A DNA stretch of 19,912 nt from a virus (Duplodnaviria > Heunggongvirae > Uroviricota > Caudoviricetes): the IMG/VR virus record IMGVR_UViG_2744054627_000004, one strand, 5' to 3'. Every line of letters begins with the position of its first letter. Position 1 is the first letter of the stretch. The notes beneath the pieces were generated by a model. The model saw only the letters and a program-made list of their open reading frames with translations. It made no database searches and had not been told where the DNA came from. Below are positions 1-14,457 of the stretch, piece after piece. The position numbers and the translations under genes were made by a program.

Positions 1-31
1 TTTTCCTTGCCATAGACACCATCCCTGTCTT

Positions 32-58
32 CCCCCACATGATGTGGGGGGTTTTTTT
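32..58 (+). terminator. Rho-independent terminator-like hairpin in the host-side flank
   Basis: Perfect 9-bp inverted repeat CCCCCACAT (32-40) / ATGTGGGGG (42-50) followed by TTTTTTT (52-58). Confidence 0.55.
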
Positions 59-142
59 ATCAAATACTTACATGCAATCAAAAGTAAAACAGTTACTTAT
101 CGAAAGCTGTAAGGGTTTGGAGCGGTTTTAAAATTTCTTGAG

Positions 143-163
143 TGTGGACACTATGTGGACACT
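143..163. other. attL P'-arm: two direct TGTGGACACT repeats, putative Int arm-type binding sites
   Basis: Direct repeats at 143-152 and 154-163 (11-bp period), 14 nt beyond the int stop; contains the TGTGGACA motif that I recall as the P2 Int arm-site consensus. Confidence 0.5.
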
Positions 164-176
164 CAGAGGGGGAAAT

Positions 177-1157
177 TTATAACGTCACTCCGCCTTTTAG
201 TGGATTCAGAGCGACGGCATTTTGCAGATAGTCAGGCGCAAGGTGCGCATAGGCCATCGTCTGCTGAATGCTCGCATGTCCCAGAATCTGTTGCAGTGCG
301 ATTATATTGCCACCATTCATCATGAAATGGCTTGCGAATGTATGCCGCAGGATGTGGGTTGCCTGATTGGGTGGTATATCAGGTTTCACTCTGCGTAAAA
401 TCCCGCAAAATTTCTCATAATCAACTTTGAATAATTTGGCGCTGGCCTCCTCTTTAACTTTTTTCTCCAGTTCCTCAGAAATCGGCACGGTTCGCTTTTT
501 ACCGTTTTTGGTTTTCAGGAAGGTAACCCTGCAATTTGTAATCTGTGCTGGTTTTAGCGTGGCAACTTCCGTCCATCTTCCTCCAGTGCTCAGACATAAA
601 AGCGCGACAAGTAAGTCATCACCAGCCAAAACATTTAACAGTTTTTCGATTTCTGCTTTTTCCAGGAACGTCATTTCAGGGTTGGCCTCCGCCAGTGGCG
701 GCAGTCCGTGAATTGGGTGTTGCCCGGAAAATTCATCCAATTGAATTAATTTTGTGAACATGCCGGATAATCTGTACATGTCACGGTTTATCGTTGCGGC
801 ACTGATACCATCACGTAGTCGCATGGAACGATAATCCATCAAAGCCCTTTTACTCATCCTGCTCACTGGTATATCACCTATGCCGCTGATGGTTTTGAGT
901 AGATGATTAAACTCTTTTGTTCCATGATCGTGGTTTTGCCCGTGATATTTCCACCAGATGTCCAGCAACTCACTCAAAGTCCGGCGGTCTGCTCGCTGGC
1001 CTCCCCATTCTTTCTGACTGGCATTGGCGATTGTGTATCGCTCAAATGCTAGTGCTTCAGCTTTTCTTTCGAATTTCCTGCGGATGCGTTTTCCGTCGCG
1101 ACCGCGAGGTCTAATGTCCACTTCATAGCGACCATCATCGAGCTTCTTAATTGCCAT
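177..1157 (-). CDS. int: Tyrosine integrase, P2 Int-like
   Basis: Listed ORF 177..1187; likely true start is the Met of MAIKKLDDGRYEV at 1157, preceded by GGAGG. C-terminal catalytic region HILRHTFASHF ... LGHASIQQTMAYAHL is typical of tyrosine recombinases. Confidence 0.9.
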   Translation of the reverse strand: MAIKKLDDGRYEVDIRPRGRDGKRIRRKFERKAEALAFERYTIANASQKEWGGQRADRRTLSELLDIWWKYHGQNHDHGTKEFNHLLKTISGIGDIPVSRMSKRALMDYRSMRLRDGISAATINRDMYRLSGMFTKLIQLDEFSGQHPIHGLPPLAEANPEMTFLEKAEIEKLLNVLAGDDLLVALLCLSTGGRWTEVATLKPAQITNCRVTFLKTKNGKKRTVPISEELEKKVKEEASAKLFKVDYEKFCGILRRVKPDIPPNQATHILRHTFASHFMMNGGNIIALQQILGHASIQQTMAYAHLAPDYLQNAVALNPLKGGVTL

Positions 1158-1226
1158 AAGAAAGCCCTCCGGCGCTGTATTCACCATCTTGGTAGCAAAT
1201 GGTGAAAATGTAATCTTTATATAGAG

Positions 1227-1519
1227 TTAGCCAATCCTTTTCGCGGAGTGGTTGGACTCTGTTGACTCTGGCCCAATGTGCGCGAGAGCCGGTGCGATTT
1301 GTCCTGCGTCCGGCGCGGTTTTATCTGTCATAAGCCATAGAGCATATTTTTGGAATGTGGGATGCATAGTGATTTTTAGCAAAGCTGTGCCACCGGGTTC
1401 AAAGTTTCCTCCTTCATATTTTTAAGTGTGCTTAGCGGTAACTCTATGATTTCACAGAATTTTGATTGGCTTAGCCCTTCAGCCTCACGCAAGGCCTTAA
1501 TCTTTTCGCTTAATTTCAT
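1227..1519 (-). CDS. C: Immunity repressor C (P2 C-like), interrupted by an apparent 1-nt frameshift
   Basis: Manual translation: ATG at 1519 gives MKLSEKIKALREAEGLSQSKFCEIIELPLSTLKNMKEETLNPVAQLC, stop at 1375-1377. The shifted frame continues ...KYALWLMTDKTAPDAGQIAPALAHIGPESTESNHSAKRIG to a stop at 1227-1229. Span is 293 nt, one short of a multiple of 3. Divergent from cox as in P2. Confidence 0.7.
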
Positions 1520-1640
1520 TTGACATGGTGCCTATATAGGGACTAAATTCCCTCAAAACTGGAACCTATATAGGTTCCATTGATTTGAGAATAAACCAGC
1601 GTCTAAACGGTTTTGAGTGGTTTAGAAAGAGCTGGATCCT
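1520..1640. promoter_or_regulatory. Immunity/early switch region (Pc/Pe promoters and operators) between C and cox
   Basis: TTGACA at 1520-1525; palindrome CCTATATAGG at 1531-1540; perfect 18-bp palindrome GGAACCTATATAGGTTCC at 1561-1578; related CCATATATGG at 1650-1659 over the cox start. Confidence 0.55.
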
Positions 1641-1928
1641 ATGAGGGTACCATATATGGACGCTGAAAATTATGTGATTCAGTATCCGCTTGATGCGGTT
1701 CATGTGGATAAATTTGCTGATTTATTAGGGAAGCCAAAGACAGCCGTCAGTGAAATGGTGAAGGCAAATAAATTACCAATTATTGAATTGCGTGATCCTT
1801 GCAAACCGAAGGCTCGTGCCGGTGAAAAATGGGTTTTCATTCCTGAGTTTAATCGCGCTGTACGTGAGGCGTTTTATAACCGACCGGTTGAACAGCGTGA
1901 TGCATGGCTTTTGTGGATGGGGTTGTGA
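1641..1928 (+). CDS. cox: Cox-like excisionase / early-switch regulator
   Basis: 95-aa ORF with P2 Cox-like features (...KLPIIELRDP...RAGEKWVFIPEFN...RDAWLLWMGL). Alternative start at 1656 (MDAENY) has a better GAGGG RBS. Stop at 1926-1928. Confidence 0.8.
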   Translation: MRVPYMDAENYVIQYPLDAVHVDKFADLLGKPKTAVSEMVKANKLPIIELRDPCKPKARAGEKWVFIPEFNRAVREAFYNRPVEQRDAWLLWMGL

Positions 1929-1930
1929 TT

Positions 1931-2101
1931 ATGAATGAGCCGCGTTGTATTGCTCAGTTATTGCGTAACGAAAGCCCCAGGGCGATTGACTTCACCATCA
2001 CCCACGGTAAGGGGCGTAAGGGAATCATTATCCGCACCAAAAAACAGAGTCCGTTAAAGAAGGCTCTGACCTTTCTGAAAAGCCGGAGGGTCTGGAAATG
2101 A
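1931..2101 (+). CDS. Small early hypothetical protein (position of P2 orf78)
   Basis: ATG at 1931 right after the cox stop; 56 aa (MNEPRCIAQLLRNESPRAIDF...); the listed ORF 1904..2101 is in the same frame. Confidence 0.5.
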   Translation: MNEPRCIAQLLRNESPRAIDFTITHGKGRKGIIIRTKKQSPLKKALTFLKSRRVWK

Positions 2102-2596
2102 CAGTGATGACGCTCAATCTCGTCGAAAAACAGCCAGCAGCTATGCGCCGGATAATTGGTAAGCATCTTGCCGTCCCTCGTTGGCAGGATACATGTGATT
2201 ATTATAATCAGATGATGGAGCGCGAACGGCTAACAGTTTGCTTTCATGCGCAGTTAAAACAACGTCACGCAACGATGCGTTTTGAAGAAATGAACGACGT
2301 CGAACGTGAACGGCTGGTTTGTGCAATTGATGAATTGCGTGGGGCATTCTCAAAACGCCGTCAGGTTGGCGCAAGTGAGTATGCATATATTAGTTTTTAA
2401 CAGTCAGTCAGCGTCGTACTTTATTTATGCATGCCGGATTGACTGAAAAGAATTCAATCAGCCATACTGGCGAATTAATGAAGAGTCATGTTACTGGCGT
2501 GATGCTTTATTCCGTGCATTACGTGAACTATTCAGTCTGTTTGAGTATGCACCGACAATTCTGACGTCGGTAAAACCAGAGCAATATTTGCATTAA
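2098..2596 (+). CDS. B: Replication gene B-like protein, two apparent homopolymer frameshifts
   Basis: ATGA-coupled start at 2098. The 100-aa ORF ends at 2400 inside a T5 run (2394-2398); the reading continues in other frames (MHAGLTEK then EFNQPYWRINEESCYWRDALFRALRELFSLFEYAPTILTSVKPEQYLH) to a stop at 2594-2596. Total about 166 aa, matching P2 B in size and position. Confidence 0.6.
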
Positions 2597-2657
2597 ATAA
2601 TTAACCAGAGTTTTTAACGCACTTAATCGTGCGGGCTTCTTTTGCCTGGAGAAAGTC

Positions 2658-2882
2658 ATGCATACAGTTTCTGAAAATCAGTGCGGTAAATACGCATTAC
2701 TGCTGCAACAGGCCAGAACCGAAGCACAGGCCGACGCTGCGACGCGCTTTTCTTCTCATCTTGACGCCATGATTCGCCATATCACAAAGGCGGAGTTATC
2801 CCGCGTGGAGATAGTCGAGCTGCTCAGTCAGGAGTCGGAAAAATTTCACAATATCGGATTGTCTCGCGGGGAGGTGCTTTGA
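2658..2882 (+). CDS. Hypothetical early protein (position of P2 orf80)
   Basis: 74-aa ORF with RBS GGAGAAAGTC upstream of the ATG. Confidence 0.6.
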
Positions 2883-3181
2883 TGTCCTGTTCTCATTCAG
2901 TTGTATTACTGAATAACGCCTTAAAAATCGCCGTTATGAAAAATGGCGATTTGTCTCTTATTCAACTTTGTCTTGATAAAGAAAAACGCGACATCACTGA
3001 ATCTGTTATCGCGATTTATCAGAATGAATTAAACCTCCTGTCTGATGTGGTCAATTTACTTGTTAAACGCGCTGTATTCCACAAGCAAATTTCCTCAGTG
3101 GATGAACTGACAAAATTAACGACAGAACTTGCCAGTTATTGCGCTGATGTATCCAGGAAACTTAACGATAAAAGGAGCTGA
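2879..3181 (+). CDS. Hypothetical early protein (position of P2 orf81)
   Basis: 100-aa ORF, ATGA overlap with the preceding ORF. Confidence 0.6.
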
Positions 3182-3183
3182 TA

Positions 3184-3408
3184 ATGCCGGACAACGTAGA
3201 TTTTATTCAGGAACAACAGGCTGAATTACTGGAGCGCCAGATTAACGCGGCAAGGGTAAAACATTGCGGTGCTTCTGCGCTGGTTTGCGAAGAGTGTGAC
3301 GCGCCAATACCTGCTGCCCGTCGTGCGGCTTATCCGTCAGCCACGCGTTGTGTTTCCTGTCAGTCAGTCTTTGAAGCAAAAAACAAACATTACCGGAGAA
3401 CGGCATGA
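3184..3408 (+). CDS. TraR/DksA-family C4 zinc-finger protein (position of P2 orf82)
   Basis: 74-aa ORF with AGGAG RBS; paired Cys motifs CEECD ... CVSCQ. Confidence 0.75.
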   Translation: MPDNVDFIQEQQAELLERQINAARVKHCGASALVCEECDAPIPAARRAAYPSATRCVSCQSVFEAKNKHYRRTA

Positions 3409-3679
3409 GTATTCGTATTGAAATTGGCGAACGTTATGTCGTTACCAGTGACAGCTTCCAGTTTATTCTCCACGAGAAAAGAGAGCGGAAAGCGGTAAAA
3501 ACGCCGGTCAGGAATGGCTGGCGGTGGTTGGTTATTACCCGAAATTAAGCCAGCTCGTTTCCGGCCTGATGCATCACGATATTCTGACCGGAAGCGCAAA
3601 GTCTTTTGCTGATTTAAACGCGCAGGTTGAGCAACTCAGCAAGCGTTGTTCAGAGGCTTTTGGCTCATATGGCCGTTAA
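3405..3679 (+). CDS. Hypothetical protein (position of P2 orf83), apparent A-run frameshift
   Basis: ATGA-coupled start at 3405 (MSIRIEIGERYVVTSDSFQFILHEKRERKAVK...). The frame breaks at the A5 run in GTAAAAACG and continues QEWLAVVGYYPKLSQLVSGLMHHDILTGSAKSFADLNAQVEQLSKRCSEAFGSYGR to a stop at 3677-3679. Confidence 0.55.
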
Positions 3680-5934
3680 AGCCTCCGGGCGTTTTGTCCC
3701 TCCGTCAGCATTTGCTGCAGGCACCGGTAAGGCGTTTACCGGTGCTTATGCATGGAACGCGCCACGCGAGGCTGTCGGGCGCGAAAGACCCCTTACACGT
3801 GACGAGATGCGTCAGGTGCAAGGTGTTTTATCCACGATTAACCGCCTGCCTTACTTTTTGCGCTCGCTGTTTACGTCACGCTATGACTACATCCGGCGCA
3901 ATAAAAGCCCGGTGCACGGGTTTTATTTCCTCACATCCACTTTTCAGCGTCGTTTATGGCCGCGCATTGAGCGTGTGAATCAGCGCCATGAAATGAACAC
4001 CGACGCGTCGATGCTGTTTCTGGCTGAGCGTGACCACTATGCGCGCCTGCCGGGAATGAATGACAAGGAGCTGAAAAAGTTTGCTGCCCGTATCTCATCG
4101 CAGCTTTTCATGATGTATGAGGAACTCAGCGATGCCTGGGTGGATGCGCATGGCGAAAAAGAATCGCTGTTTACGGATGAGGCGCAGGCTCACCTCTATG
4201 GTCATGTTGCTGGCGCTGCACGTGCTTTCAATATTTCCCCTCTCTACTGGAAAAATACCGTAAAGGACAGATGACCACGAGGCAGGCATATTCTGCCATT
4301 GCCCGTCTGTTTAACGATGAGTGGTGGATTAGTCAGCTTAAAGGCCAGCGTATGCGCTGGCATGAGGCGTTACTGATTGCTGTCGGGGAGGTCAATAAAG
4401 ACCGTTCTCCTTATGCCAGTAAACATGCCATTCGTGATGTGCGTGCACGCCGCCAGGCAAATCTGGAATTTCTTAAATCGTGTGATCTCGAAAACAGGGA
4501 AACAGGCGAGCGCATCGACCTTATCAGTAAGGTGATGGGCAGTATTTCTAATCCTGAAATTCGCCGGATGGAGCTGATGAACACCATTGCCGGTATTGAG
4601 CGTTACGCCGCCGCAGAAGGTGATGTGGGGATGTTTATCACGCTGACCGCGCCGTCAAAGTATCACCCGACACGTCAGGTTGGAAAAGGCGAAAGTAAAA
4701 CCGTCCAGCTAAATCACGGCTGGAACGATGAGGCATTTAATCCAAAGGATGCGCAGCGTTATCTCTGCCGTATCTGGAGCCTGATGCGCACGGCATTCAA
4801 GGATAATGATTTACAGGTCTACGGTTTGCGAGTCGTCGAGCCACACCACGACGGAACGCCGCACTGGCATATGATGCTTTTTTGTAATCCACGCCAGCGT
4901 AACCAGATTATCGAAATCATGCGTCGCTACGCGCTCAAAGAGGATGGCGACGAAAGAGGAGCTGCGCGAAACCGTTTTCAGGCAAAACATCTTAATCGGG
5001 GCGGTGCTGCGGGGTATATCGCGAAATACATCTCAAAAATATCGACGGCTATGCACTGGATGGGCAGCTCGATAACGATACCGGCAGACCGCTGAAAGAC
5101 ACTGCAGCGGCTGTTACCGCATGGGCGTCAACGTGGCGTATCCCGCAATTTAAAACGGTTGGTCTGCCGACAATGGGGGCTTACCGTGAACTACGCAAAT
5201 TGCCTCGCGGCGTCAGCATTGCTGATGAGTTTGACGAGCGCGTCGAGGCTGCACGCGCCGCTGCAGACAGTGGTGATTTTGCGTTGTATATCAGCGCGCA
5301 GGGCGGGGCAAATGTCCCGCGCGATTGTCAGACTGTCAGGGTCGCCCGTAGCCCGTCGGATGACGTTAACGAGTACGAGGAAGAAGTCGAGAGAGTGGTC
5401 GGCATTTACGCGCCGCATCTCGGCGCGCGTCATATTCATATCACCAGAACCACGGACTGGCGCATTGTGCCGAAAGTGCCGGTCATTGAGCCTTTGACTT
5501 TAAAAAGCGGCATCGCCGCGCCTCGGAGTCCTGTCAATAACTGTGGAAAGCTTACCGACGGTGATACTTCGTTACCGGCTCCCACACCTTCTGAGCACGC
5601 CGCAGCAGTGCTTAATCTGGTTGATGACGGTGTTATCGAATGGAATGAGCCAGAGGTCGTGAGGGCGCTCAGAGGTGCATTAAAACACGAACTGAGAACA
5701 CCAAATCGTCAGCAGAGAAACGGAAGCCCGTTAAAACCACATGAAATAGCGCCATCGGCCAGACTGACCCGGTCGGAACGAACGCAAATTACCCGTATCC
5801 GCGTTGACCTTGCTCAGAACGGTATCAGGCCGCAGCGATGGGAGCTTGAGGCGCTGGCGCGTGGGGCAACAGTAAATTATGACGGGAAAAAATTCACGTA
5901 TCCGGTCACTGATGAGTGGCCGGGATTCATATAA
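3669..5934 (+). CDS. A: Replication initiation endonuclease A (rolling-circle HUH nickase), two apparent A-run frameshifts
   Basis: Three listed ORFs (3627..4274, 4271..5095, 5173..5934) in three frames join into one protein of about 755 aa. HUH motif PHWHMMLF and tyrosine pair YIAKYISK are present. Breaks are at A5 runs 4251-4255 and 5047-5051. Likely start is MAVKASGRF at 3669. Confidence 0.88.
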
Positions 5935-6212
5935 ACTGAAATGAACAGCGTTGCAAGTGTGATAAAAATCATTATACTGTTTTTATATACAGCACCTTGA
6001 TCTGGAAAGATGCTATAAATGTATATTTCTATAAAAATATATGGTTTATTGATTGTGTATGCTCACTATCAAATTTATACTCCGCGCGCAATGTTGAGTA
6101 TGCTTAAGATATAGCGTTTACAATTCCAGGCTTGAAGGCTCGGGTATAGGTAAAAATTGAGTGTTCTCGGTTGCTTTTCGTGACATAAGAGGACAGCAAA
6201 GGAGGTTGAGTA

Positions 6213-6682
6213 TGTACAGCCCATTGAACATCGCGAATAAGTTTATAGAACTTGCTTGCGCGGCTGGTATGCCAATCACCCAGATGCAGGCACAAAAGCT
6301 GACCTATATAGCACATGGTATAAATCTGGGTTACAAAGGGACGCCTTTGTTAACGACACCAGTTTGTGCATGGCGTTATGGTCCAGTGGTTCCAGTTCTG
6401 TATAACCATCTTAAAGTTTATGGCCGTAGTCCCATAACACAACCAATACAAGTTCCATCGGCAATTTCTCAGGAGTTTGACCCTATGACTGAGCAGTTGC
6501 TGCAGAACGTTTATAACGTTTACGGTAAATATACCGCTGAGGATTTATCTGCTTTCACACATCGTGAAGGTACTCCTTGGAAGCAAGCAATGGATAGTCG
6601 TATGGATATCATTCCTGATTCCGTTATTCAGGATTACTATCAAAAGCTGCTACACGGCGATAGCAATTGCATCGGACTATGA
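6213..6682 (+). CDS. Panacea-domain (DUF4065 / GepA / PanA-like) protein, putative antitoxin-type component
   Basis: 156-aa ORF with strong RBS AAGGAGG 6 nt upstream of the ATG at 6213 (listed ORF starts earlier, at 6161, in the same frame). Signature KLTYIAHG...AWRYGPVVPVLY...YG...THREGTPW resembles what I recall of DUF4065; not checked by HMM. Confidence 0.6.
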
Positions 6683-6696
6683 GTCCGAATTAAGAT

Positions 6697-6722
6697 AACC
6701 CCGTCTATGTACGGGGTTTTTT
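6697..6722 (+). terminator. Intrinsic terminator between the Panacea-like gene and the next ORF
   Basis: Stem ACCCCGT (6698-6704) / ACGGGGT (6711-6717), loop CTATGT, then a T6 tract (6717-6722) that runs directly into the ATG at 6723. Confidence 0.6.
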
Positions 6723-7106
6723 ATGCCTGACGATAATAAGAAAGTGACAGCTGAATTTGATAAAGACCTTCTCAGACGATTGCAGCAAGCTGAGCAGAAT
6801 CTGATAACTGCCTCTGCGGCTTTGGGAGATGAGGGCTGTTGGGATGAAGAATCTCATGAGCCTGAGTCTGTTGAGGACGCTGTTGATGAAATGCAAAAGG
6901 AAGAAGAGGATGCTGCGACCATGCAGCGTTTGGATTTATCCAGTCTTAATTTTCAAATTGCTGAATTGAGTCGCTGTGTTGAAACTATAAGCACTAACCT
7001 TGAAAGCGTACAGGCAGAAACCAAAAGAAAAATGCGGAAACCGACGGCCTGCTTACGGACAATGAGCTCCGTAGAACTATGGCTGATAAAACATATCAAT
7101 TCATGA
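6723..7106 (+). CDS. Acidic, coiled-coil-like hypothetical protein (127 aa as read)
   Basis: Listed ORF; very D/E-rich central segment (DEGCWDEESHEPESVEDAVDEMQKEEEDAATMQ). The 3' end may be frameshifted into the downstream TM ORF at the A5 run 7029-7033. Confidence 0.5.
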   Translation: MPDDNKKVTAEFDKDLLRRLQQAEQNLITASAALGDEGCWDEESHEPESVEDAVDEMQKEEEDAATMQRLDLSSLNFQIAELSRCVETISTNLESVQAETKRKMRKPTACLRTMSSVELWLIKHINS

Positions 7107-7165
7107 TTGTTTGGTGTTGTTTTGTCGGCTGGGTCATATTTATGTATGTATTGAAAAAGATTTGA
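7103..7165 (+). CDS. Tiny hydrophobic single-TM peptide (20 aa; 28 aa if started at ATG 7079)
   Basis: Manual translation MIVWCCFVGWVIFMYVLKKI; ATGA overlap with the stop of the 127-aa ORF; not in the ORF track because under 60 aa. Confidence 0.35.
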   Translation: MIVWCCFVGWVIFMYVLKKI

Positions 7166-7193
7166 TCCACCAGAAACAATTATCATTGCGCTT

Positions 7194-7292
7194 ATGGGAA
7201 CCACAACTGTGAGTATTGTGGGATTGGTTGGGTTTGTTGTTAGTGGTTTGTTCAAAAGCAACAATAAACCTTCTGGCGACAATAAAAATTAA
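7194..7292 (+). CDS. Tiny hydrophobic single-TM peptide (32 aa)
   Basis: Manual translation MGTTTVSIVGLVGFVVSGLFKSNNKPSGDNKN. The same frame is open upstream (KRFDPPETIIIAL...), so it may be the second TM helix of one frameshifted two-TM protein. Confidence 0.3.
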   Translation: MGTTTVSIVGLVGFVVSGLFKSNNKPSGDNKN

Positions 7293-7300
7293 TCATCAAA

Positions 7301-7327
7301 GTGGCACCTTTGGGTGCTATTTTTTTG
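7301..7327 (+). terminator. Intrinsic terminator closing the cargo module
   Basis: Stem GGCACC (7303-7308) / GGTGCT (7313-7318), loop TTTG, followed by ATTTTTTT. Confidence 0.6.
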
Positions 7328-7477
7328 CTTTTTCCGCGATTTCACTGTTTTTTCCGTGCATCATGTGATGCATGAGTTTGAATGTGCTTTAGTCGAGCTC
7401 ACTTGCTTTCTGCTGCCAATGCTAGCTAGGTTTGACGGTGTTCATGCAACTGCATTAAACCGACCATGAAGCGGGCG

Positions 7478-7494
7478 GGCGAGGCGGAAAGCAC
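7478..7494. other. cos: cos site (cohesive-end sequence) of the P2-like phage
   Basis: GGCGAGGCGGAAAGCAC matches my recollection of the P2 19-nt cohesive end GGCGAGGCGGGGAAAGCAC except for a shorter G run; it sits between the cargo and Q as in P2 prophages. Confidence 0.65.
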
Positions 7495-7662
7495 TGCGCG
7501 CTGGCGGTGGTGCTGATTTTATTTTTTCGGCGTCTCAGCGCGTCGTGATGGCGTTTAGATTGTGTGCCGGGGCGTCGGTGTGTCTGCGGGCTGTTTTGCG
7601 TGGAGGTGAGCGTGTGAGGGCGTGATGACGGGGTGTAAAAAGCCGCCCGCAGGCGGCGATGT

Positions 7663-8692
7663 TCAGCCGTTGTCAGTGTCCAGTGAGTAGTTTTTAAAGC
7701 GGATGACCTCCTGACCGAGCCAGCCGTTTATCTCGCGGATCCTGTCCTGTAGCGGGATAAGCTCATTGCGGACAAAGACCTTTGCCACTTTCTCAATATC
7801 ACCCAACGACCCGACGTTCTCCGGCTTGCCGCCCATCAACTGAAAGGGGATGCGGTGCGCGTCCAGCAGGTCAGCGGCGCTGGCTTTTTGATATTAAAAA
7901 ATCGTCCTTCGTTGCCACTTCACTGAGCGGGATAATTTTAATGCCGTCGACTTTCCCTGCGGGGCATAGAGAAACAGATTTTTAAAGTTGTTGCGGCCTT
8001 TCGACTTCACCATGTTTTCGCGAAGCATTTCGATATCGTTGCGATTCTGCACGGCATCAGTGACGTACATGATGTATCCGGCATGTGCGCCGTTTTCGTA
8101 ATACTTGCGGCGAAACAGCGTGGCCGACTCATTCAGCCAGGCAGAATTAAGGGCGCTGAGATATTCCGGCAGGCCGTACAGCTCCTGATTAATATCCGGC
8201 TCCAGCAGGTGAAACACGGAGCCGGGCGTGAAGGCTGTCGGCTCGTTGAAGGACGGCACCCACCAGTAAACATCCTCTTCCACACCACGGCGGGTATATT
8301 TTGCCGGTGAGGTTTCCAGTCTGATGACCTTACCGGTGGTGCTGTATCGCTTTTCCAGAAACGCATTACCGAACACCAGAAAATCCAGCACAAAGCGGCT
8401 GAAATCCTGTTGCGAAAGCCACGGGTGCGGGATAAACGTTGAAGCCAGAATATTGCGTTTGACGTAAATCGGTGAGCTGTGATGCACGGCAGCACGCAGG
8501 CTTTTGCCAGACCGGTAAAGCTGACCGGTGGCTCATACCATCTGCCGTTACTGATGCACTCGACGTAATCCAGAATGTCACGGCGGTCGAGTACCGGCAC
8601 CGGCTCACCAAAGGTGAATGCTCCATTTTCGGGGCGCTGGCGGTCATTGTTTTTGCCGCAGGTTGCGGTGTTTTCCCTTTTTTCTTGCTCAT
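7663..8692 (-). CDS. Q: Portal protein Q, multiple apparent frameshifts
   Basis: Start [19 protein letters not shown] at 8692; listed fragments 8366..8692, 8133..8600 and 7894..8487 lie in different frames; C-terminus ...EVIRFKNYSLDTDNG ends at 7663. Span 1030 nt against about 1035 expected. Confidence 0.85.
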
Positions 8693-10458
8693 CAGTAAAA
8701 CTCCAGAATGGTGGATGTCAGCGGAGTGCTGATACCGGCGGTGAGTGGCTCATTTAACAGGGCGTGCATGGTCGCCCAGGCGAGGTCGGCGTGGCTGGCT
8801 TCCTCGCTGCGGCTGGCCTCATAGGTGGCGCTGCGTCCGCTGCTGGTCATGGTCTTGCGGATAGCCATAAACGAGCTGGTGATGTCGGTGGCGCTGACGT
8901 CATATTCCAGACAGCCACGACGGATAACGTCTTTTGCCTTGAGCACCATTGCGGTTTTCATTTCCGGCGTGTAGCGGATATCGCGCGCGGCGGGATAGAA
9001 CGAGCGCACGAGCTGGAACACGCCGACACCGAGGCCGGTGGCATCAATCCCGATGTATTCAACGTTGTATTTTTCGGTGAGTTTGCGGATGGATTCCGCC
9101 TGGGTGGCAAAGTCCATGCCTTTCCACTGGTGACGCTCAAGTATTCTGAATTTGCCACCGGCCACCACCGGCGGTGCCAGTACCACGCATCCGGCGCTGT
9201 CGCCACGGTGTGACGGGTCGTAACCAATCCATACCGGACGTGAGCCGAACGGATTGGCGGCAAACGGCGCATAGTCTTCCCATTCTTCCAGCGTGTCGAC
9301 CATGCAGCGTTGCAGCTCCTCGAACGGGAACACCGACGCCTTGTCGTCAACAAATTCACACATGAACAGGTTTTTAAAATCGTCGGCGCTGTTTTCACGT
9401 TTGAGCTGCTCAATGTCGAACAGTGTGCAGCCGCCTTTCAGGGCATCCTCAATGGTGACAATCTGCCGCCACTGGCCGTCCGCACAGAGAAGACCTCCGG
9501 CAAGGGCGTTATGACTGACGTCGATTTCCACACGTTCGGCTGCGCTGGCGCGTCCCCGGTTGAACAGTTCACCCGACCAGAACGGGTAGGCGTCGTGCGC
9601 CAGCGTGGACGGGGTGGAGAAATAGGTCGAACGCAGGTGACTCTGTGAGGCCATACCTGATGCCACCTTACGCAGTACCTGAAAATTCGGGATCCAGAAA
9701 ATCTCGTCGACGTACAGGTCGCCGTTATGGCTCTGCGCGGTGTTGGAGTTGGTGCCGAGAAAATCAGTTTTGCGCCGTTATTGCCCAGGACAATCGGGTC
9801 ACCGGTCAGGTCAACGTCAACCAGCCGGGCAAAGGCGATGATGTATTCGCGGAACACATACGCCTGCGTTTTACTGGCCGACAGAAAAATCTGGTTATGA
9901 CCGGTTTTCAGGGCGCGCAGCAGCGCCTCGCGGGAAAATAAAACGTCGCGCCAATCTGGCGGGATTTCAGGATATCGCGGATGCGGTGCTCAAGCCCGGC
10001 GCGATACCAGTGCAACTGATAGTCGAAAGACTGCTCAAAGAAAATCTGCTCCAGCTTTTCGATGGCCTCGTCACTGAAAAATTCTTTTCGGTTTGCGACG
10101 CCCGCCTTTGTTGCGGTTAGCGATGTTCGGATTAAGGTCTGCCTCGTTGCCGGTCTGGCTGTAGCGGTTTACCCGTGCCAGTCGTTCAATCTGGCGTCCG
10201 AGCAGGTCAATTTCCTTGAAGTCACCGCCGGTTTTCTGCGGTTTGATGATGAGCTGGATCAGCCGCGCTTCCAGACTCATTTCGACACGGCTGATGGGGG
10301 CAACACTGTCCCAGCCGTCGCGCTGTTTCCAGCTCTGCACCGTCGGGCGTTTCATCTGCAACATGGCGGCAATCTGCGGCACGGAAACCCTGCCAGTACA
10401 GCAGCGCCGCCTGACGACGCGGGTCGTGTAAAAGAGTGGTGTCTGTGGTGATGGTCAT
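8692..10458 (-). CDS. P: Terminase large subunit (ATPase) P, multiple apparent frameshifts
   Basis: Start [25 protein letters not shown] at 10458 with a GAGG RBS; fragments 10222..10488, 10071..10382, 9438..9857 and 8692..9666 in different frames. Example break: plus-strand A4 run 9760-9763. Confidence 0.85.
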
Positions 10459-10631
10459 GAATACCTCGCCGTGATGAATACACGGCAAGGCTACTGAGTC
10501 GCGCCCCGCGATTCGCTAAGGTGCTGTTGTGTCAGTGATAAGCCATCCGGGACTGATGGCGGAGGATGCGCATCGTCGGGAAACTGATGCCGACATGTGA
10601 CTCCTCTAATCACTATTCAGGACTCCTGACA

Positions 10632-11485
10632 ATGGCAAAAAAAGTCTCAAAATTCTTTCGTATCGGCGTTGAGGGTGACACCTGTGACGGGCGTGTCATC
10701 AGTGCGCAGGATATTCAGGAAATGGCCGAAACCTTTGACCCGCGAGTCTATGGTTGCCGCATTAACCTGGAACATCTGCGCGGCATCCTGCCTGACGGTA
10801 TTTTTAAGCGTTATGGCGATGTGGCCGAACTGAAGGCCGAAAAGATTGACGATGATTCGGCGCTGAAAGGCAAATGGGCGCTGTTTGCGAAAATCACCCC
10901 GACCGATGACCTTATCGCGATGAACAAGGCCGCGCAGAAGGTCTACACCTCAATGGAAATTCAGCCGAACTTTGCCAACACCGGCAAATGTTATCTGGTG
11001 GGGCTGGCCGTCACCGATGACCCGGCAAGCCTCGGCACGGAATACCTGGAATTCTGCCGCACGGCAAAACACAACCCCCTGAACCGCTTCAAATTAAGCC
11101 CTGAAAACCTGATTTCAGTGGCAACGCCTGTTGAGCTGGAATTTGAAGACCTGCCTGAAACCGTGTTCACCGCCCTGACCGAAAAGGTGAAATCCATTTT
11201 TGGCCGCAAACAGGCCAGCGATGATGCCCGTCTGAATGACGTGCATGAAGCGGTGACCGCTGTTGCTGAACATGTGCAGGAAAAACTGAGCGCCACTGAG
11301 CAGCGCATCGAAGAAATGGAAACCGCCTTTTCTGCACTTAAGCAGGAGATGACTGACAAGGCGGATGAAACCAGCCAGGCATTCAGCCGCCTGAAAACAG
11401 TCTCGACCACACCGAAAGTCTGACCCAGCAGCGCCGCAGCAAGGCCACCGGCGGTGGCGGTGACGCCCTGATGACGAACTGCTGA
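10632..11485 (+). CDS. O: Capsid scaffolding protein O, frameshift near the 3' end
   Basis: Listed ORF 10566..11423; likely start MAKKVSKFFRIGVEG at 10632. The A4 run 11394-11397 truncates the reading; the shifted frame continues ...LTQQRRSKATGGGGDALMTNC to a stop at 11483-11485. Confidence 0.85.
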
Positions 11486-11543
11486 CCGGCGTCAGCCAGT
11501 CCGGGAAAACCTTCACGATTAACCCTTAATTTCAGGAAAAACT

Positions 11544-12616
11544 ATGCGCCAGGAAACCCGCTTTAAATTTAATGCCTACCTGTCCCGTGTTGCCGAACTG
11601 AACGGCATCGACGCCGGTGATGTGTCGAAAAAATTCACCGTTGAACCGTCGGTCACCCAGACCCTGATGAACACCATGCAGGAGTCCTCTGACTTTCTGA
11701 CCCGCATCAACATTGTGCCGGTCAGCGAAATGAAAGGGGAAAAAATTGGTATTGGTGTCACCGGCTCCATCGCCAGCACCACCGACACCGCCGGTGGCAC
11801 CGAGCGTCAGCCGAAGGACTTCTCGAAGCTGGCGTCAAACAAGTACGAATGCGACCAGATTAACTTCGATTTTTATATCCGCTACAAAACGCTGGACCTG
11901 TGGGCGCGTTATCAGGATTTCCAGCTCCGTATCCGTAACGCCATTATCAAACGCCAGTCCCTTGATTTCATCATGGCCGGTTTTAACGGTGTGAAGCGTG
12001 CCGAAACCTCTGACCGCAACAGTAATCCGATGTTGCAGGATGTGGCGGTCGGCTGGCTGCAGAAATACCGCAATGAAGCCCGGCGCGCGTGATGAGCAAG
12101 GTCACTGACGAGGAAGGCCATACCACCTCTGAGGTTATCCGCGTGGGTAAGGGCGGTGATTATGCCAGCCTCGATGCACTGGTGATGGATGCGACCAACA
12201 ACCTGATTGAGCCGTGGTATCAGGAAGACCCTGACCTTGTGGTGATTGTGGGACGTCAGCTACTGGCGGACAAGTATTTCCCCATCGTTAACAAGGAGCA
12301 GGATAACAGCGAAATGCTGGCCGCTGACGTCATCATCAGCCAGAAACGCATCGGTAACCTGCCGGCGGTGCGCGTCCCGTACTTCCCGGCAGATGCGATG
12401 CTCATCACGAAGCTGGAAAACCTGTCCGTCTACTACATGGATGACAGCCATCGCCGCGTGATTGAGGAAAACCCGAAACTCGACCGCGTGGAGAACTACG
12501 AGTCAATGAACATTGATTACGTGGTGGAAGACTACGCCGCCGGTTGTCTGGTGGAAAAAATCAAGGTCGGTGATTTCTCCACACCGGCTAAGGCGACCGC
12601 AGAGCCGGGAGCGTAA
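11544..12616 (+). CDS. N: Major capsid protein N, one apparent frameshift
   Basis: ORFs 11544..12092 and 12089..12616 join to about 357 aa; break at the C3 run 12079-12081. Confidence 0.88.
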
Positions 12617-12619
12617 CCG

Positions 12620-13407
12620 ATGACGAGTCCCGCACAGCGCCACATGATGCGGGTCTCGGCAGCGATGACCGCGCAGCGGGAAGCCGCCCCGCTGCGACAT
12701 GCAACTGTCTATGAGCAGATGCTGGTTAAGCTCGCCGCAGACCAGCGCACACTGAAAGCGATTTATTCAAAAGAGCTTAAGGCCGCGAAAAGCGCGAACT
12801 GCTGCCGTTCTGGTTGCCGTGGGTGAACGGTGTGCTGGAGCAGGGCAAAGGTGCACAGGATGACATTCTGATGACGGTCATGCTGTGGCGTCTGGATACC
12901 GGCGATATTGCCGGTGCGCTGGAGATTGCCCGTTATGCCCTGAAGTACGGTCTGACCATGCCGGGTAAACACCGCCGTACCCGCCGTACATGTTCACCGA
13001 GGAGGTGGCGCTTGCGGCCATGCGCGCTCACGCTGCCGGTGAATCCGTGGATACCCGCCTGCTGACGGAGACCCTTGAACTGACCGCCACGGCAGACATG
13101 CCTGATGAAGTGCGCGCAAAGCTGCACAAATTACCGGTCTGTTTCTGCGTGACGCTGGTGATGCTGCAGGGGCACTGGCGCACCTGCAACGTGCGACACA
13201 GCTCGACTGTCAGGCAGGCGTCAAAAAGAGATTGAACGACTGGAGCGGGAGCTGAAACCGAAGCCGGAGCCGCAGCCCAAAGCAGCGACCCGCGCCCCGC
13301 GTAAGACCCGGAGCGTGACACCGGCAAAACGTGGACGCCCGAAAAAAGAAAAGCCAGTTAACAACCCCCGAATGCGCCCCGCGCCAGGGCGGCACGCCGG
13401 TCAGTGA
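12620..13407 (+). CDS. M: Terminase small (endonuclease) subunit M, multiple apparent frameshifts; 3' end uncertain
   Basis: Fragments 12620..12826, 12814..13065 and 12990..13235 plus a further frame ending at 13405-13407; N-terminus MTSPAQRHMMRVSAAMTAQREA. Confidence 0.75.
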
Positions 13408-13463
13408 GGGTGAATCACCTGACACTGCACCGGCGTCCACCGCCCGACTTTTCAGAGGTAGTC

Positions 13464-13970
13464 ATGATGACGCTGATTATTCCGCGAAAGGAGGCTCCCG
13501 TGTCCGGTGAGGGTACGGTGGTCATCCCGCAACCGGCAGGCGATGAGCCGGTGATTAAAACACGTTCTTTTTCCCGATATCGACCCGAAGCGCGTCCGGG
13601 AACGTATGCGCCTTGAGCAGACCGTCGCCCCCGCCCGTCTGCGTGAGGCCATCAAGTCAGGCATGGCGGAAACAAATGCGGAGCTGTACGAGTACCGCGA
13701 ACAGAAAATTGCCGCCGGTTTTACGCGTCTGGCGGACGTTCCGGCGGACGACATCGACGGTGAAAGTATCAAAGTTTTTACTACGAGCGCGCCGTGTGTG
13801 CGATGGCGACCGCGTCGCTTTATGAGCGTTATCGCGGCGTGGATGCCAGTGCGAAAGGCGACAAGAAGGCTGACAGCATTGACAGCACCATTGATGAACT
13901 GTGGCGGGATATGCGCTGGGCGGTGGCGCGTATCCAGGACAAGCCGCGCTGCATCGTGAGTCAAATCTGA
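13464..13970 (+). CDS. L: Head completion/stabilisation protein L, apparent frameshifts
   Basis: Start MMTLIIPRKEAPVSGEG at 13464 with a GAGG RBS; continues in ORF 13606..13959 (MRLEQTVAPARLREAIKSG...) and a third frame ending ...RCIVSQI at 13968-13970. Confidence 0.8.
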
Positions 13971-14173
13971 TGAAGACCTTTGCGCTACAGGGCGACACGC
14001 TCGACGCCATTTGTGTCCGGTATTACGGGCGCACTGAGGGCGTGGTTGAGACCGTGCTCGCCGCAAATCCGGGACTGGCTGAACTGGGTGCGGTGCTGCC
14101 ACACGGCACCGCCGTCGAACTGCCCGACGTTCAGACCGCGCCCGTGGCTGAAACTGTCAATCTGTGGGAGTAA
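13970..14173 (+). CDS. X: Tail protein X
   Basis: MKTFALQGDTLDAICVRYYGRTEGVVETVLAANPGLAEL... (67 aa); the ATG overlaps the L stop; stop at 14171-14173. Confidence 0.85.
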   Translation: MKTFALQGDTLDAICVRYYGRTEGVVETVLAANPGLAELGAVLPHGTAVELPDVQTAPVAETVNLWE

Positions 14174-14176
14174 CGC

Positions 14177-14457
14177 ATGACAGCAGAAGAAAAAGCGTCC
14201 TGTCGCTTTTCATGATTGGGGTGCTGATTGTTGTCGGCAAGGTGCTTGCCGGTGGTGAACCCATCACCCCGCGTCTGTTTATCGGGCGCATGTTGCTCGG
14301 TGGTTTTGTCTCGATGGTTGCCGGTGTTGTTCTGGTGCAGTTTCCTGACCTGTCACTGCCTGCGGTGTGCGGTATCGGCTCCATGCTGGGTATCGCCGGT
14401 TATCAGGTGATTGAGATTGCCATTCAGCGCCGTTTTAAGGGCAGGGGGAAACAGTAA
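14177..14457 (+). CDS. Y: Holin Y, apparent A-run frameshift near the 5' end
   Basis: ATG at 14177 (MTAEEK...); break in the A5 run 14190-14194; continues as listed ORF 14164..14457 (SVLSLFMIGVLIVVGKVLAGG...), a multi-TM protein. Confidence 0.85.

Follow-up and report, generated by a model that had tools for sequence, protein, structure and literature searches.

Among toxin-antitoxin (TA) systems that combine a Panacea-domain antitoxin (PanA) with a partner toxin (PanT), the closest described relative of the locus analysed here is the pair of Escherichia coli STEC O31 (WP_000287252.1/WP_000019185.1), which Kurata et al. (2022, PNAS; PMC8832971) labelled 'Membrane', assigned to toxin cluster T3 and validated. 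The STEC O31 toxin shuts down transcription, translation and replication together and depolarises the membrane, with entry of SYTOX Green pointing to large pores; its PanA rescues growth, and both complex formation and direct neutralisation have been reported for the pair (PMC8832971). The Panacea fold has been described as compact, with helices alpha1-alpha7 plus strands beta1-beta2 (Ernits et al. 2023; PMC10440598), and in the PanA of Bartonella, neutralisation is abolished by mutations of Y56, which immediately precedes beta-2, and of H120, where alpha-5 ends (PMC10440598).

With these systems we compared a locus in a stretch of 19,912 nucleotides (nt) from IMG/VR virus record IMGVR_UViG_2744054627_000004 (Caudoviricetes), referred to below as the window, whose numbering is used throughout. 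Positions 6053-7330 very probably hold a two-gene panA-panT type II TA operon, carried as cargo of the gpA-gpQ hotspot beside cos in an Escherichia P2-like prophage. This reading is carried by a Panacea domain in the first gene product, a single toxin gene behind it, homology to the validated pair, synteny, the hotspot location and a covarying hairpin between the two genes. The features of the operon are the following, with protein lengths in amino acids (aa):

6053-6089, plus strand: putative panAT promoter, with a -35 element TTGTGT at 6053-6058, a 17-nt spacer and a -10 element TATACT at 6076-6081
6083-6089, plus strand: candidate GC-rich discriminator CGCGCGC, a conserved block
6200-6205, plus strand: Shine-Dalgarno sequence AGGAGG of panA, 6 nt 5' of the ATG
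6212-6682, plus strand: panA, a stand-alone Panacea-domain antitoxin gene of 156 aa, intact in the window
6697-6722, plus strand: terminator-like hairpin between panA and panT, a AACCCCGT-CTATGT-ACGGGGTT stem-loop (6697-6718) with a T-run behind it that reaches up to the toxin ATG (6723)
6723-7292, plus strand: panT, the membrane toxin gene, of 190 aa if intact, in three frame segments and then a stop codon
6723-7031, plus strand: panT segment 1, aa 1-103, frame 0
7028-7159, plus strand: panT segment 2, aa 103-146, frame +2
7161-7289, plus strand: panT segment 3, aa 148-190, frame 0
7028-7032, plus strand: frame break 1, A5 in the window and A6 in the intact gene
7154-7158, plus strand: frame break 2, A5 in the window and A6 in the intact gene
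7161-7163, plus strand: frame break 3, T3 in the window and T4 in the intact gene
7298-7330, plus strand: operon-closing terminator-like hairpin with a T-run, found by terminator scan

As read from the sequence, panA starts with the ATG at 6212 and ends with the stop codon at 6680-6682; an earlier note on this DNA had placed the start at 6213, from where translation runs into eight stop codons. In an alignment of related loci, AAGGAG or GGAGG is kept at the position of the panA Shine-Dalgarno sequence. The same note had called the product a 156-aa Panacea (DUF4065-like) protein and proposed a Pfam search as a check, and this check confirmed the assignment, with PF13274 (SocA_Panacea) matching PanA at E=5.2e-18 and 66.5 bits over profile positions 2-113 of 113, far above the gathering score of 25.7 bits. 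The motifs that it quoted, MYSPLNIANKFIELA, KLTYIAHG, AWRYGPVVPVLY and THREGTPW, are all found in the 156-aa product, together with two further YG. PanA also matches phrog_1281 (E=1e-47), its sequence is that of RefSeq WP_047090264.1, annotated as 'Panacea domain-containing protein', and PF13274 is carried by every one of the 35 clusters of PanA homologues in a collection of 5.8 billion proteins. Because panA has no homopolymer of five or more bases, it escapes the frame errors that are described below for its neighbour.

An AlphaFold2 model of PanA, built from 31 homologues, reached a mean predicted local distance difference test score (pLDDT) of 93.7 and a predicted template modelling (TM) score of 0.90, and consists of seven helices (residues 4-17, 24-42, 61-70, 91-104, 109-116, 122-128 and 136-147) plus a beta-hairpin (strands 51-54 and 57-59). 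The architecture of this model is the one published for the Panacea fold. The best fold matches in BFVD were phage proteins of equal size (TM scores of 0.64-0.73). In the PDB, a phmmer sequence search with PanA returned nothing and a profile search only a spurious match to Pumilio (E=0.008), while a Foldseek search with the model gave nothing significant, the top entry being a DarTG chain (TM score 0.43, E of about 1). Since no experimental structure of the Panacea fold was found in the PDB, PanA can be compared to predictions only; of the structural check proposed earlier, the agreement with the fold as described stands and the comparison with an experimental PanA structure falls away. Y56 and H117 of PanA are invariant in the family alignment; in the model, Y56 immediately precedes beta-2 and H117 lies where helix 5 ends. 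They are thus likely positional equivalents of Y56 and H120 of the Bartonella antitoxin, an equivalence by place in the predicted fold and not by alignment.

Downstream of panA, the raw window shows three open reading frames (ORFs): one of 127 aa encoding an acidic protein (6723-7106), one of 28 aa (7079-7165) and one of 32 aa (7194-7292). We found that all three match the same protein family of 190 residues, phrog_26171, and do so collinearly, at positions 1-106, 120-146 and 159-190; the fragments also match phrog_13343 (E=1.7e-9). The 1.5-kb cargo is present in intact form in 11 complete E. coli genomes at 99.3-99.7% DNA identity, and RefSeq annotates two genes in it, one for a Panacea-domain protein and one for a 190-aa 'DUF2975 domain-containing protein' (WP_001112381.1). 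As the three ORFs are collinear on one PHROG and correspond to an intact 190-aa gene in 11 genomes, they are fragments of a single gene, panT. The 'acidic ORF and tiny TM peptides' (TM here for transmembrane) of the earlier note are therefore literally what the raw window shows, and all of them are pieces of one gene.

The three breaks in panT are all one-base deletions within A/T homopolymers, as seen in the alignment to the prophage of E. coli CUVM3 (locus L001), and they are part of a pattern that runs through the contig. This alignment covers 14.4 kb of the window (1-14419) at 98.2% identity and holds 50 gapped columns, 38 of which are one-base deletions in homopolymers of the window, the other 12 falling in two short divergent stretches. 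Runs of six bases were shortened in the window in 54% of cases (14 of 26), runs of five in 19% (10 of 53) and runs of four in 9 of 158, with almost none of the shorter runs affected; the shortened runs are of A/T and, in some cases, of C/G. The same one-base deletions split gene A (with indels at window positions 4250 and 5034), the portal gene, the terminase gene and others. Because identical deletions hit runs contig-wide, including those in essential phage genes, the breaks in panT are read as assembly artefacts: the most economical reading is that they are errors of an unpolished long-read assembly and that the gene is intact. Reading this window by its ORFs is unreliable at runs of at least four bases. 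What looked like a partnerless antitoxin amid odd mini-ORFs is a homopolymer artefact laid over a standard PanA-PanT module, and in other unpolished long-read contigs the same artefact will yield false calls of 'orphan antitoxins' or 'novel small toxins'.

Some further observations concern the reading of the toxin gene. Its two A6 runs would be natural slippage hotspots, whether the breaks there are real frameshifts or sequencing errors. Elsewhere, a contig of 158,051 bases carries toxin products of 134 aa and 124 aa, the 134-aa one named Escherichia albertii, as a split or truncated toxin call. Programmed frameshifting at an A-run was considered and rejected: all intact relatives read one uninterrupted frame, and the errors found throughout the contig are of the same kind as these breaks. 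A match to the Rfam DnaX frameshift element at 7009-7063, overlapping the first A-run, scored 18.4 bits against a threshold of 35 (E=0.43) and was judged to be due to chance; the Rfam scan of 5800-7700 gave sub-threshold matches only. An antisense ORF of 109 aa (6953-7282, minus strand), which is unannotated in the RefSeq relatives, was rejected as a gene and taken as a by-product of the toxin frame.

PanT begins with an N-terminal helix, followed by a very acidic segment of low model confidence and a long helix that enters the first hydrophobic segment; a short KKDFDPPE loop then leads to a second hydrophobic helix ending in GLVGFVVSGLFKS. Its net charge is -17 over residues 1-120, with -14 falling in residues 35-66 of that region. 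Hydrophobic helices lie at about 126-145 and 153-175 (hydrophobic 19-mers at 125-146 and 152-178), and in the AlphaFold2 model residues 53-145 and 152-180 are helical, the pLDDT being 84-89 across 121-170 as means of 10-residue blocks. By homology and by the model, PanT would thus combine an acidic N-terminal half, helical or disordered, with a C-terminal hairpin of two transmembrane helices. The family name given to the toxin in RefSeq was rejected: DUF2975 (PF11188) scores 22.1 bits against a gathering score of 27 and covers residues 127-179, the membrane hairpin, only, and the lambdoid PanT scores 12.9 bits against it. The name stems from weak similarity of membrane helices and is not a real family assignment.

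Both proteins are homologous to the validated pair. Over its full length, PanA shares 45% identity with WP_000287252.1, which is also the PanA of the PhiR47_1 module (E=8e-46), and PanT is 44% identical to the PhiR47_1 PanT over its C-terminal 95 aa (E=1e-26, BLASTP). The PhiR47_1 module (PV340566.1) is a lambdoid-prophage locus whose Panacea protein is WP_000287252.1, and loci of this type have the same 22-nt spacing as the STEC O31 pair listed by Kurata et al.; WP_000019187.1, which adjoins WP_000287252.1 in the genome examined, is 100% identical to the PhiR47_1 PanT. A search for literature on PhiR47_1 found nothing other than the two PanA papers. Since the toxin is homologous to the PanT that accompanies the validated WP_000287252.1, the partner is of the canonical kind for this PanA lineage. 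On the sequence comparison, PanT belongs to the T3 membrane-toxin cluster, and its charged N-terminus and predicted C-terminal transmembrane region agree with the architecture of T3-type toxins. The earlier interpretation was half right: the antitoxin was rightly thought to be paired with a membrane protein encoded downstream, and the central point, that of an antitoxin with 'no obvious canonical toxin partner' whose 'toxin may be novel', is wrong, as the 190-aa gene next to panA is homologous to the PanT of a validated PanA lineage and its product is a member of the described T3 lineage. The locus adds a widespread representative to the PanAT family with T3 membrane toxins.

The pairing is conserved well beyond the window. 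The exact PanA sequence was seen on 212 contigs and the exact toxin sequence on 338, the genera that carry them being Escherichia, Enterobacter, Klebsiella and Citrobacter. At E<=1e-3 the toxin family comprises 72 clusters, of which those named after an organism are all from Enterobacterales, and pattern scans added relatives of the toxin from Caulobacter, Niveispirillum, Methylocystis, Bryobacterales and Acidobacteriota and from 53 IMG/VR viral contigs. A PanA homologue is encoded directly 5' of the toxin homologue, on the same strand, in 72 of the 76 loci that were fetched; of the four lacking PanA upstream, three are truncated by contig ends and the remaining one, L076, is a remnant. The 72 include loci at P2 hotspots, at two different lambdoid positions and on contigs of Caulobacter, Methylocystis and Acidobacteria. 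We found the module at the P2 gpA-gpQ hotspot in many genera, at the end of lambdoid prophages in Escherichia, by the ea22 and exonuclease genes, and between the antiterminator Q and holin genes of a Providencia prophage. Because it occurs at no fewer than three unrelated phage positions (at least three), panA-panT behaves as a self-contained two-gene cassette.

Two of these loci deserve separate description. In L076 (IMGVR_UViG_2574180000_000003, 3001-3102), the last 34 codons of the toxin gene, 82% identical, directly follow gpA and PanA is missing. This appears to be what a deletion has left of the cassette, and it shows turnover at the hotspot. In the Providencia-type lambdoid loci L012 and L013 (3507-4495), a PanA of 155 aa and a toxin of 164 aa are separated by a 26-nt spacer and lie between the late antiterminator Q and the holin and lysis genes.

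The stop codon of panA and the ATG of panT are 40 nt apart, and the hairpin fills much of this spacer. It was found by the terminator scan and folds at -15.4 kcal/mol (z=-3.3). Hairpins are present in all 19 distinct spacers from the P2 hotspot, whose PanAs are 43-90% identical to that of the window; these spacers are 40-47 nt long, their stems are GC-rich and measure 8-11 bp, the toxin ATG lies within 3-12 nt of the 3' end of the stem, and in 17 of the 19 the stem is followed by at least four consecutive T. In the alignment of the spacers, 96.5% of cells are paired and seven of the nine base pairs show compensatory changes, such as C-G to U-A, G-C to A-U and U-A to C-G. These values were reached by none of 500 shuffles, and sliding the pairing partners by one column reduced pairing to about 50%. 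The wobble pairs are G-U on the plus strand only, indicating that the sense RNA is the strand in which the structure is favoured. Ahead of the panT ATG, nothing resembles a Shine-Dalgarno sequence except the GGGG or GGGA in the 3' arm of the hairpin. The lambdoid versions lack the hairpin and have a spacer of 21-22 nt with a plain AGGGA Shine-Dalgarno sequence, and in distant PanA-toxin versions the two genes overlap by 4-29 nt.

Among the T3 pairs of Kurata et al. that were compared, most have gaps between -26 and +31 nt and a single Deinococcus pair has one of +55 (PMC8832971), and the words 'terminator' and 'hairpin' are absent from Kurata et al. 2022 (PMC8832971). The conserved panA-panT hairpin of the P2-hotspot clade seems to be unreported so far. 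In TA operons of the ToxIN type (type III), an internal terminator between the antitoxin and toxin cistrons sets the excess of antitoxin. The likeness of ToxIN to PanAT is functional only: the ToxIN antitoxin is an RNA, and both PanAT components are proteins. We know of no type II TA operon that has been described as using an internal terminator as a stoichiometry device, and the covarying hairpin offers a handle on how an operon of two interacting proteins sets its ratio of antitoxin to toxin.

Upstream of panA, an alignment of 18 diverged P2-hotspot loci shows only TTG (6053-6055), TATA(A/C)T and CGCGCGC to be conserved. We infer from their conservation that these blocks are a promoter and its discriminator; the consensus promoter scan missed this promoter because its -35 element matches at only three of six positions. 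GC-rich discriminators are typical of promoters that are sensitive to ppGpp/DksA, and a discriminator of this type would tie the supply of antitoxin to the growth state. In many relatives a second element, of TTGAC type, lies about 10-20 nt 3' of the GC-rich block, and it is degenerate in the window.

The window is a P2-like prophage, and the cassette occupies the same position in it as in E. coli CUVM3, where the prophage adjoins cpxP. On its left, gene A ends at 5934, and on its right comes the cos-proximal sequence (about 7440-7560); the flanks are as follows:

3627-5934, plus strand: left flank, the P2-type replication endonuclease gene A (PF05840 Phage_GPA, E=1.4e-107), split into three ORFs
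7440-8600, minus strand: right flank, a cos-proximal region shared with P2 (about 7440-7560) and then the split portal gene Q (PF04860 Phage_portal; the annotation of L001 agrees)

An intact gene A of 755 aa is present in L001, and the portal gene of the window runs on the minus strand from 7894. When the cargo region was searched by megablast against a phage collection, only a cos-proximal match of about 120 bp was obtained (query 1502-1626, window about 7436-7560), which indicates that the cargo is absent from deposited genomes of P2-like phages. Rousset et al. (2022) showed that cargo varies at the gpA-gpQ interval, which they identified as a hotspot, and that many of the genes carried there act against phages (PMC9122126), and their Table S5A lists the combination 'DUF4065 + hypothetical: WP_000287234 + WP_001112381', which is not among the systems that they cloned (PMC9122126). 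WP_000287234 is a 99%-identical allele of the PanA of the window and WP_001112381 is the same toxin. In P2-like prophages of Enterobacter (L007, 4964-6724; L008, 4994-5263), the hotspot holds other cargo besides PanAT, either a reverse transcriptase (RVT_1, 586 aa) immediately 3' of it or a DUF6953 protein, and a DinI gene upstream, so that the cassette is found together with genes that are likely to serve in defence. PanAT is an easy candidate for a defence assay, as no phage defence hotspot in E. coli is better characterised than the one in which it lies.

What follows on the workings of the operon is inferred: the toxicity of PanT, its neutralisation in a complex with PanA, the attenuating effect of the hairpin and the biological role. 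Transcription would start from the conserved promoter about 125 nt 5' of panA. The hairpin with its U-run probably terminates most transcripts after panA and, on those that read through, probably sequesters the only Shine-Dalgarno-like sequence of panT; together, termination and sequestration would leave antitoxin in excess. By homology, PanT is expected to insert into the inner membrane, depolarising and permeabilising it, and PanA to bind PanT directly and keep it harmless, the contact probably involving the N-terminal region of PanT and the helix that precedes its first transmembrane segment. The RosmerTA system of Gordonia phage Kita is a membrane-toxin TA that acts in defence (PMC10440598). 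With the hotspot and such membrane-toxin precedents in mind, one may speculate about abortive infection, superinfection exclusion or prophage stabilisation, and a likely role would be exclusion of competing phages in the manner of abortive infection, stabilisation of the prophage, or both.

Four other explanations were weighed, two of which turn on the state of the toxin gene. That panT is truly pseudogenised by its three frameshifts, leaving PanA alone, for instance as an anti-addiction factor or a protector against related PanTs, agrees with the window as given, in which the toxin lies in three frames, and loss or truncation of the toxin does have parallels in the family: the 134-aa and 124-aa calls on the E. 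albertii contig fall in the same 90% cluster, and L076 keeps only the last 34 residues of the toxin, with no PanA. We nevertheless regard it as unlikely, as the breaks match the deletions found across the contig (14 of 26 six-base and 10 of 53 five-base runs, with gpA, portal and terminase hit as well), a pattern that marks an unpolished long-read assembly and not selection acting on a single gene, and the toxin DNA outside the shortened runs is at least 99% identical to intact copies. Even less can be said for a novel toxin hidden among separate small genes, an acidic protein and independent tiny transmembrane peptides. Exactly such ORFs appear in the raw-window list, and small membrane peptides are known partners of PanA (PMC8832971), but the idea is refuted by the collinearity of the fragments on one PHROG and one 190-aa protein, and every related locus examined has a single gene, from a lineage already described and validated; we consider it scarcely credible.

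The other two accept an intact membrane protein and differ over what PanA does. If PanA did more than bind the toxin and, as an adaptor for proteolysis, handed it over to ClpXP or another protease, the system would be of type VI, like SocAB, in which SocA does this for SocB; indeed, the best NCBIfam match of PanA is NF047745 'type VI toxin-antitoxin system SocA family antitoxin' (E=3.1e-28), and some relatives are named 'SocA domain-containing' in RefSeq. This is very unlikely, given that the NF047745 match, at 98.6 bits, is far under the equivalog cut-off of 190, that the partner is a two-transmembrane protein unlike the replication-clamp inhibitor SocB, and that direct neutralisation and complexes have been reported for the homologous E. 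coli pair and for other PanATs (PMC8832971, PMC10440598). Alternatively, there may be no TA system, the membrane protein being a constitutive superinfection-exclusion or holin-like factor and PanA an unrelated regulator or sensor: the hotspot also carries non-TA cargo, the Providencia copy sits between antiterminator Q and holin genes, and a sensory role for Panacea has been proposed by Ernits et al. (PMC10440598). Against this stand the strict adjacency and co-orientation with PanA over three unrelated phage positions and several phyla, the growth arrest by the homologous toxin and its rescue by PanA (PMC8832971), and the hairpin itself, since holding down the second gene makes sense if its product is dangerous. 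We consider this explanation, too, to be highly improbable.

The preferred reading, a two-gene panA-panT TA operon, has its own weak points, and the following weigh against it or against parts of it. The STEC O31 pair was validated by experiment and the window pair is known from its sequence. The comparison toxin, WP_000019187.1, comes from another strain, where it accompanies the same PanA accession, and stands in for WP_000019185.1, which we assume to be a near-identical allele. The N-terminal region of PanT, about 85 aa, is unalignable with the validated PanT, and the analogy of the PanA-PanT interface is an assumption. One of the three toxin frameshifts might be real. In three of the 19 hairpins the T-run is weak or missing, and the hairpin may act mainly on translation or RNA stability. 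As to defence, PADLOC-DB v2 gave no match at E up to 1 with PanA and the three toxin fragments encoded in the window, and a literature search, which yielded nothing other than the two PanA papers, found no report that this PanAT defends against phages; a defence role is a speculation that takes its cue from location.

A more specific version of the two-gene operon can be put forward tentatively, as a possibility that we do not favour. PanAT of the P2 hotspot might be a distinct, attenuated variant in which the hairpin sets a very low basal level of toxin, serving as an abortive-infection system of the prophage with PanA as the sensor. If so, a competing phage that inactivates or depletes PanA, or that promotes read-through and unfolding of the hairpin, would release a pore-forming toxin. 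To our knowledge, no defence role has been described for a membrane PanT.

Compared with the described systems, the window pair is closest to that of STEC O31 and PhiR47_1, which likewise consists of a stand-alone Panacea antitoxin of about 156 aa encoded upstream of a toxin of about 180-190 aa, the toxin likewise being charged at its N-terminus and ending in a hairpin of two transmembrane segments, and the pair being borne by an E. coli prophage. The toxin motif ALxGTxTxSIVGLVGFVVSGLFKS is nearly invariant and common to both pairs. They differ in place, the STEC O31/PhiR47_1 pair sitting at the end of a lambdoid prophage and the window pair in the P2 gpA-gpQ hotspot, and in the sequence between the genes, which is a spacer of 21-22 nt with an ordinary AGGGA Shine-Dalgarno sequence in the former and a 40-nt spacer with a covarying terminator-like hairpin in the latter. 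The PanT(T12/D11):PanA pair of Bartonella choladocola (apis) likewise falls in the class of membrane-depolarising pore formers, with a charged N-terminus and C-terminal transmembrane helices (PMC10440598, PMC8832971), and its toxin is neutralised directly by the Panacea domain, but it belongs to a different toxin cluster than the PanT of the window. SocAB of Caulobacter crescentus, a type VI TA with which the SocA/Panacea family was founded, shares its domain with the window PanA; its toxin is the DnaN-binding SocB, which is delivered to ClpXP, whereas the partner in the window is a membrane protein for which sequestration would be expected. With the cargo catalogued by Rousset et al. at the P2 hotspot (old, tin, retrons, DprA-PRTase and others), the cassette shares its insertion point, from replication gene A to cos and portal gene Q; that cargo includes systems assayed for defence, whereas the window pair has been catalogued only.

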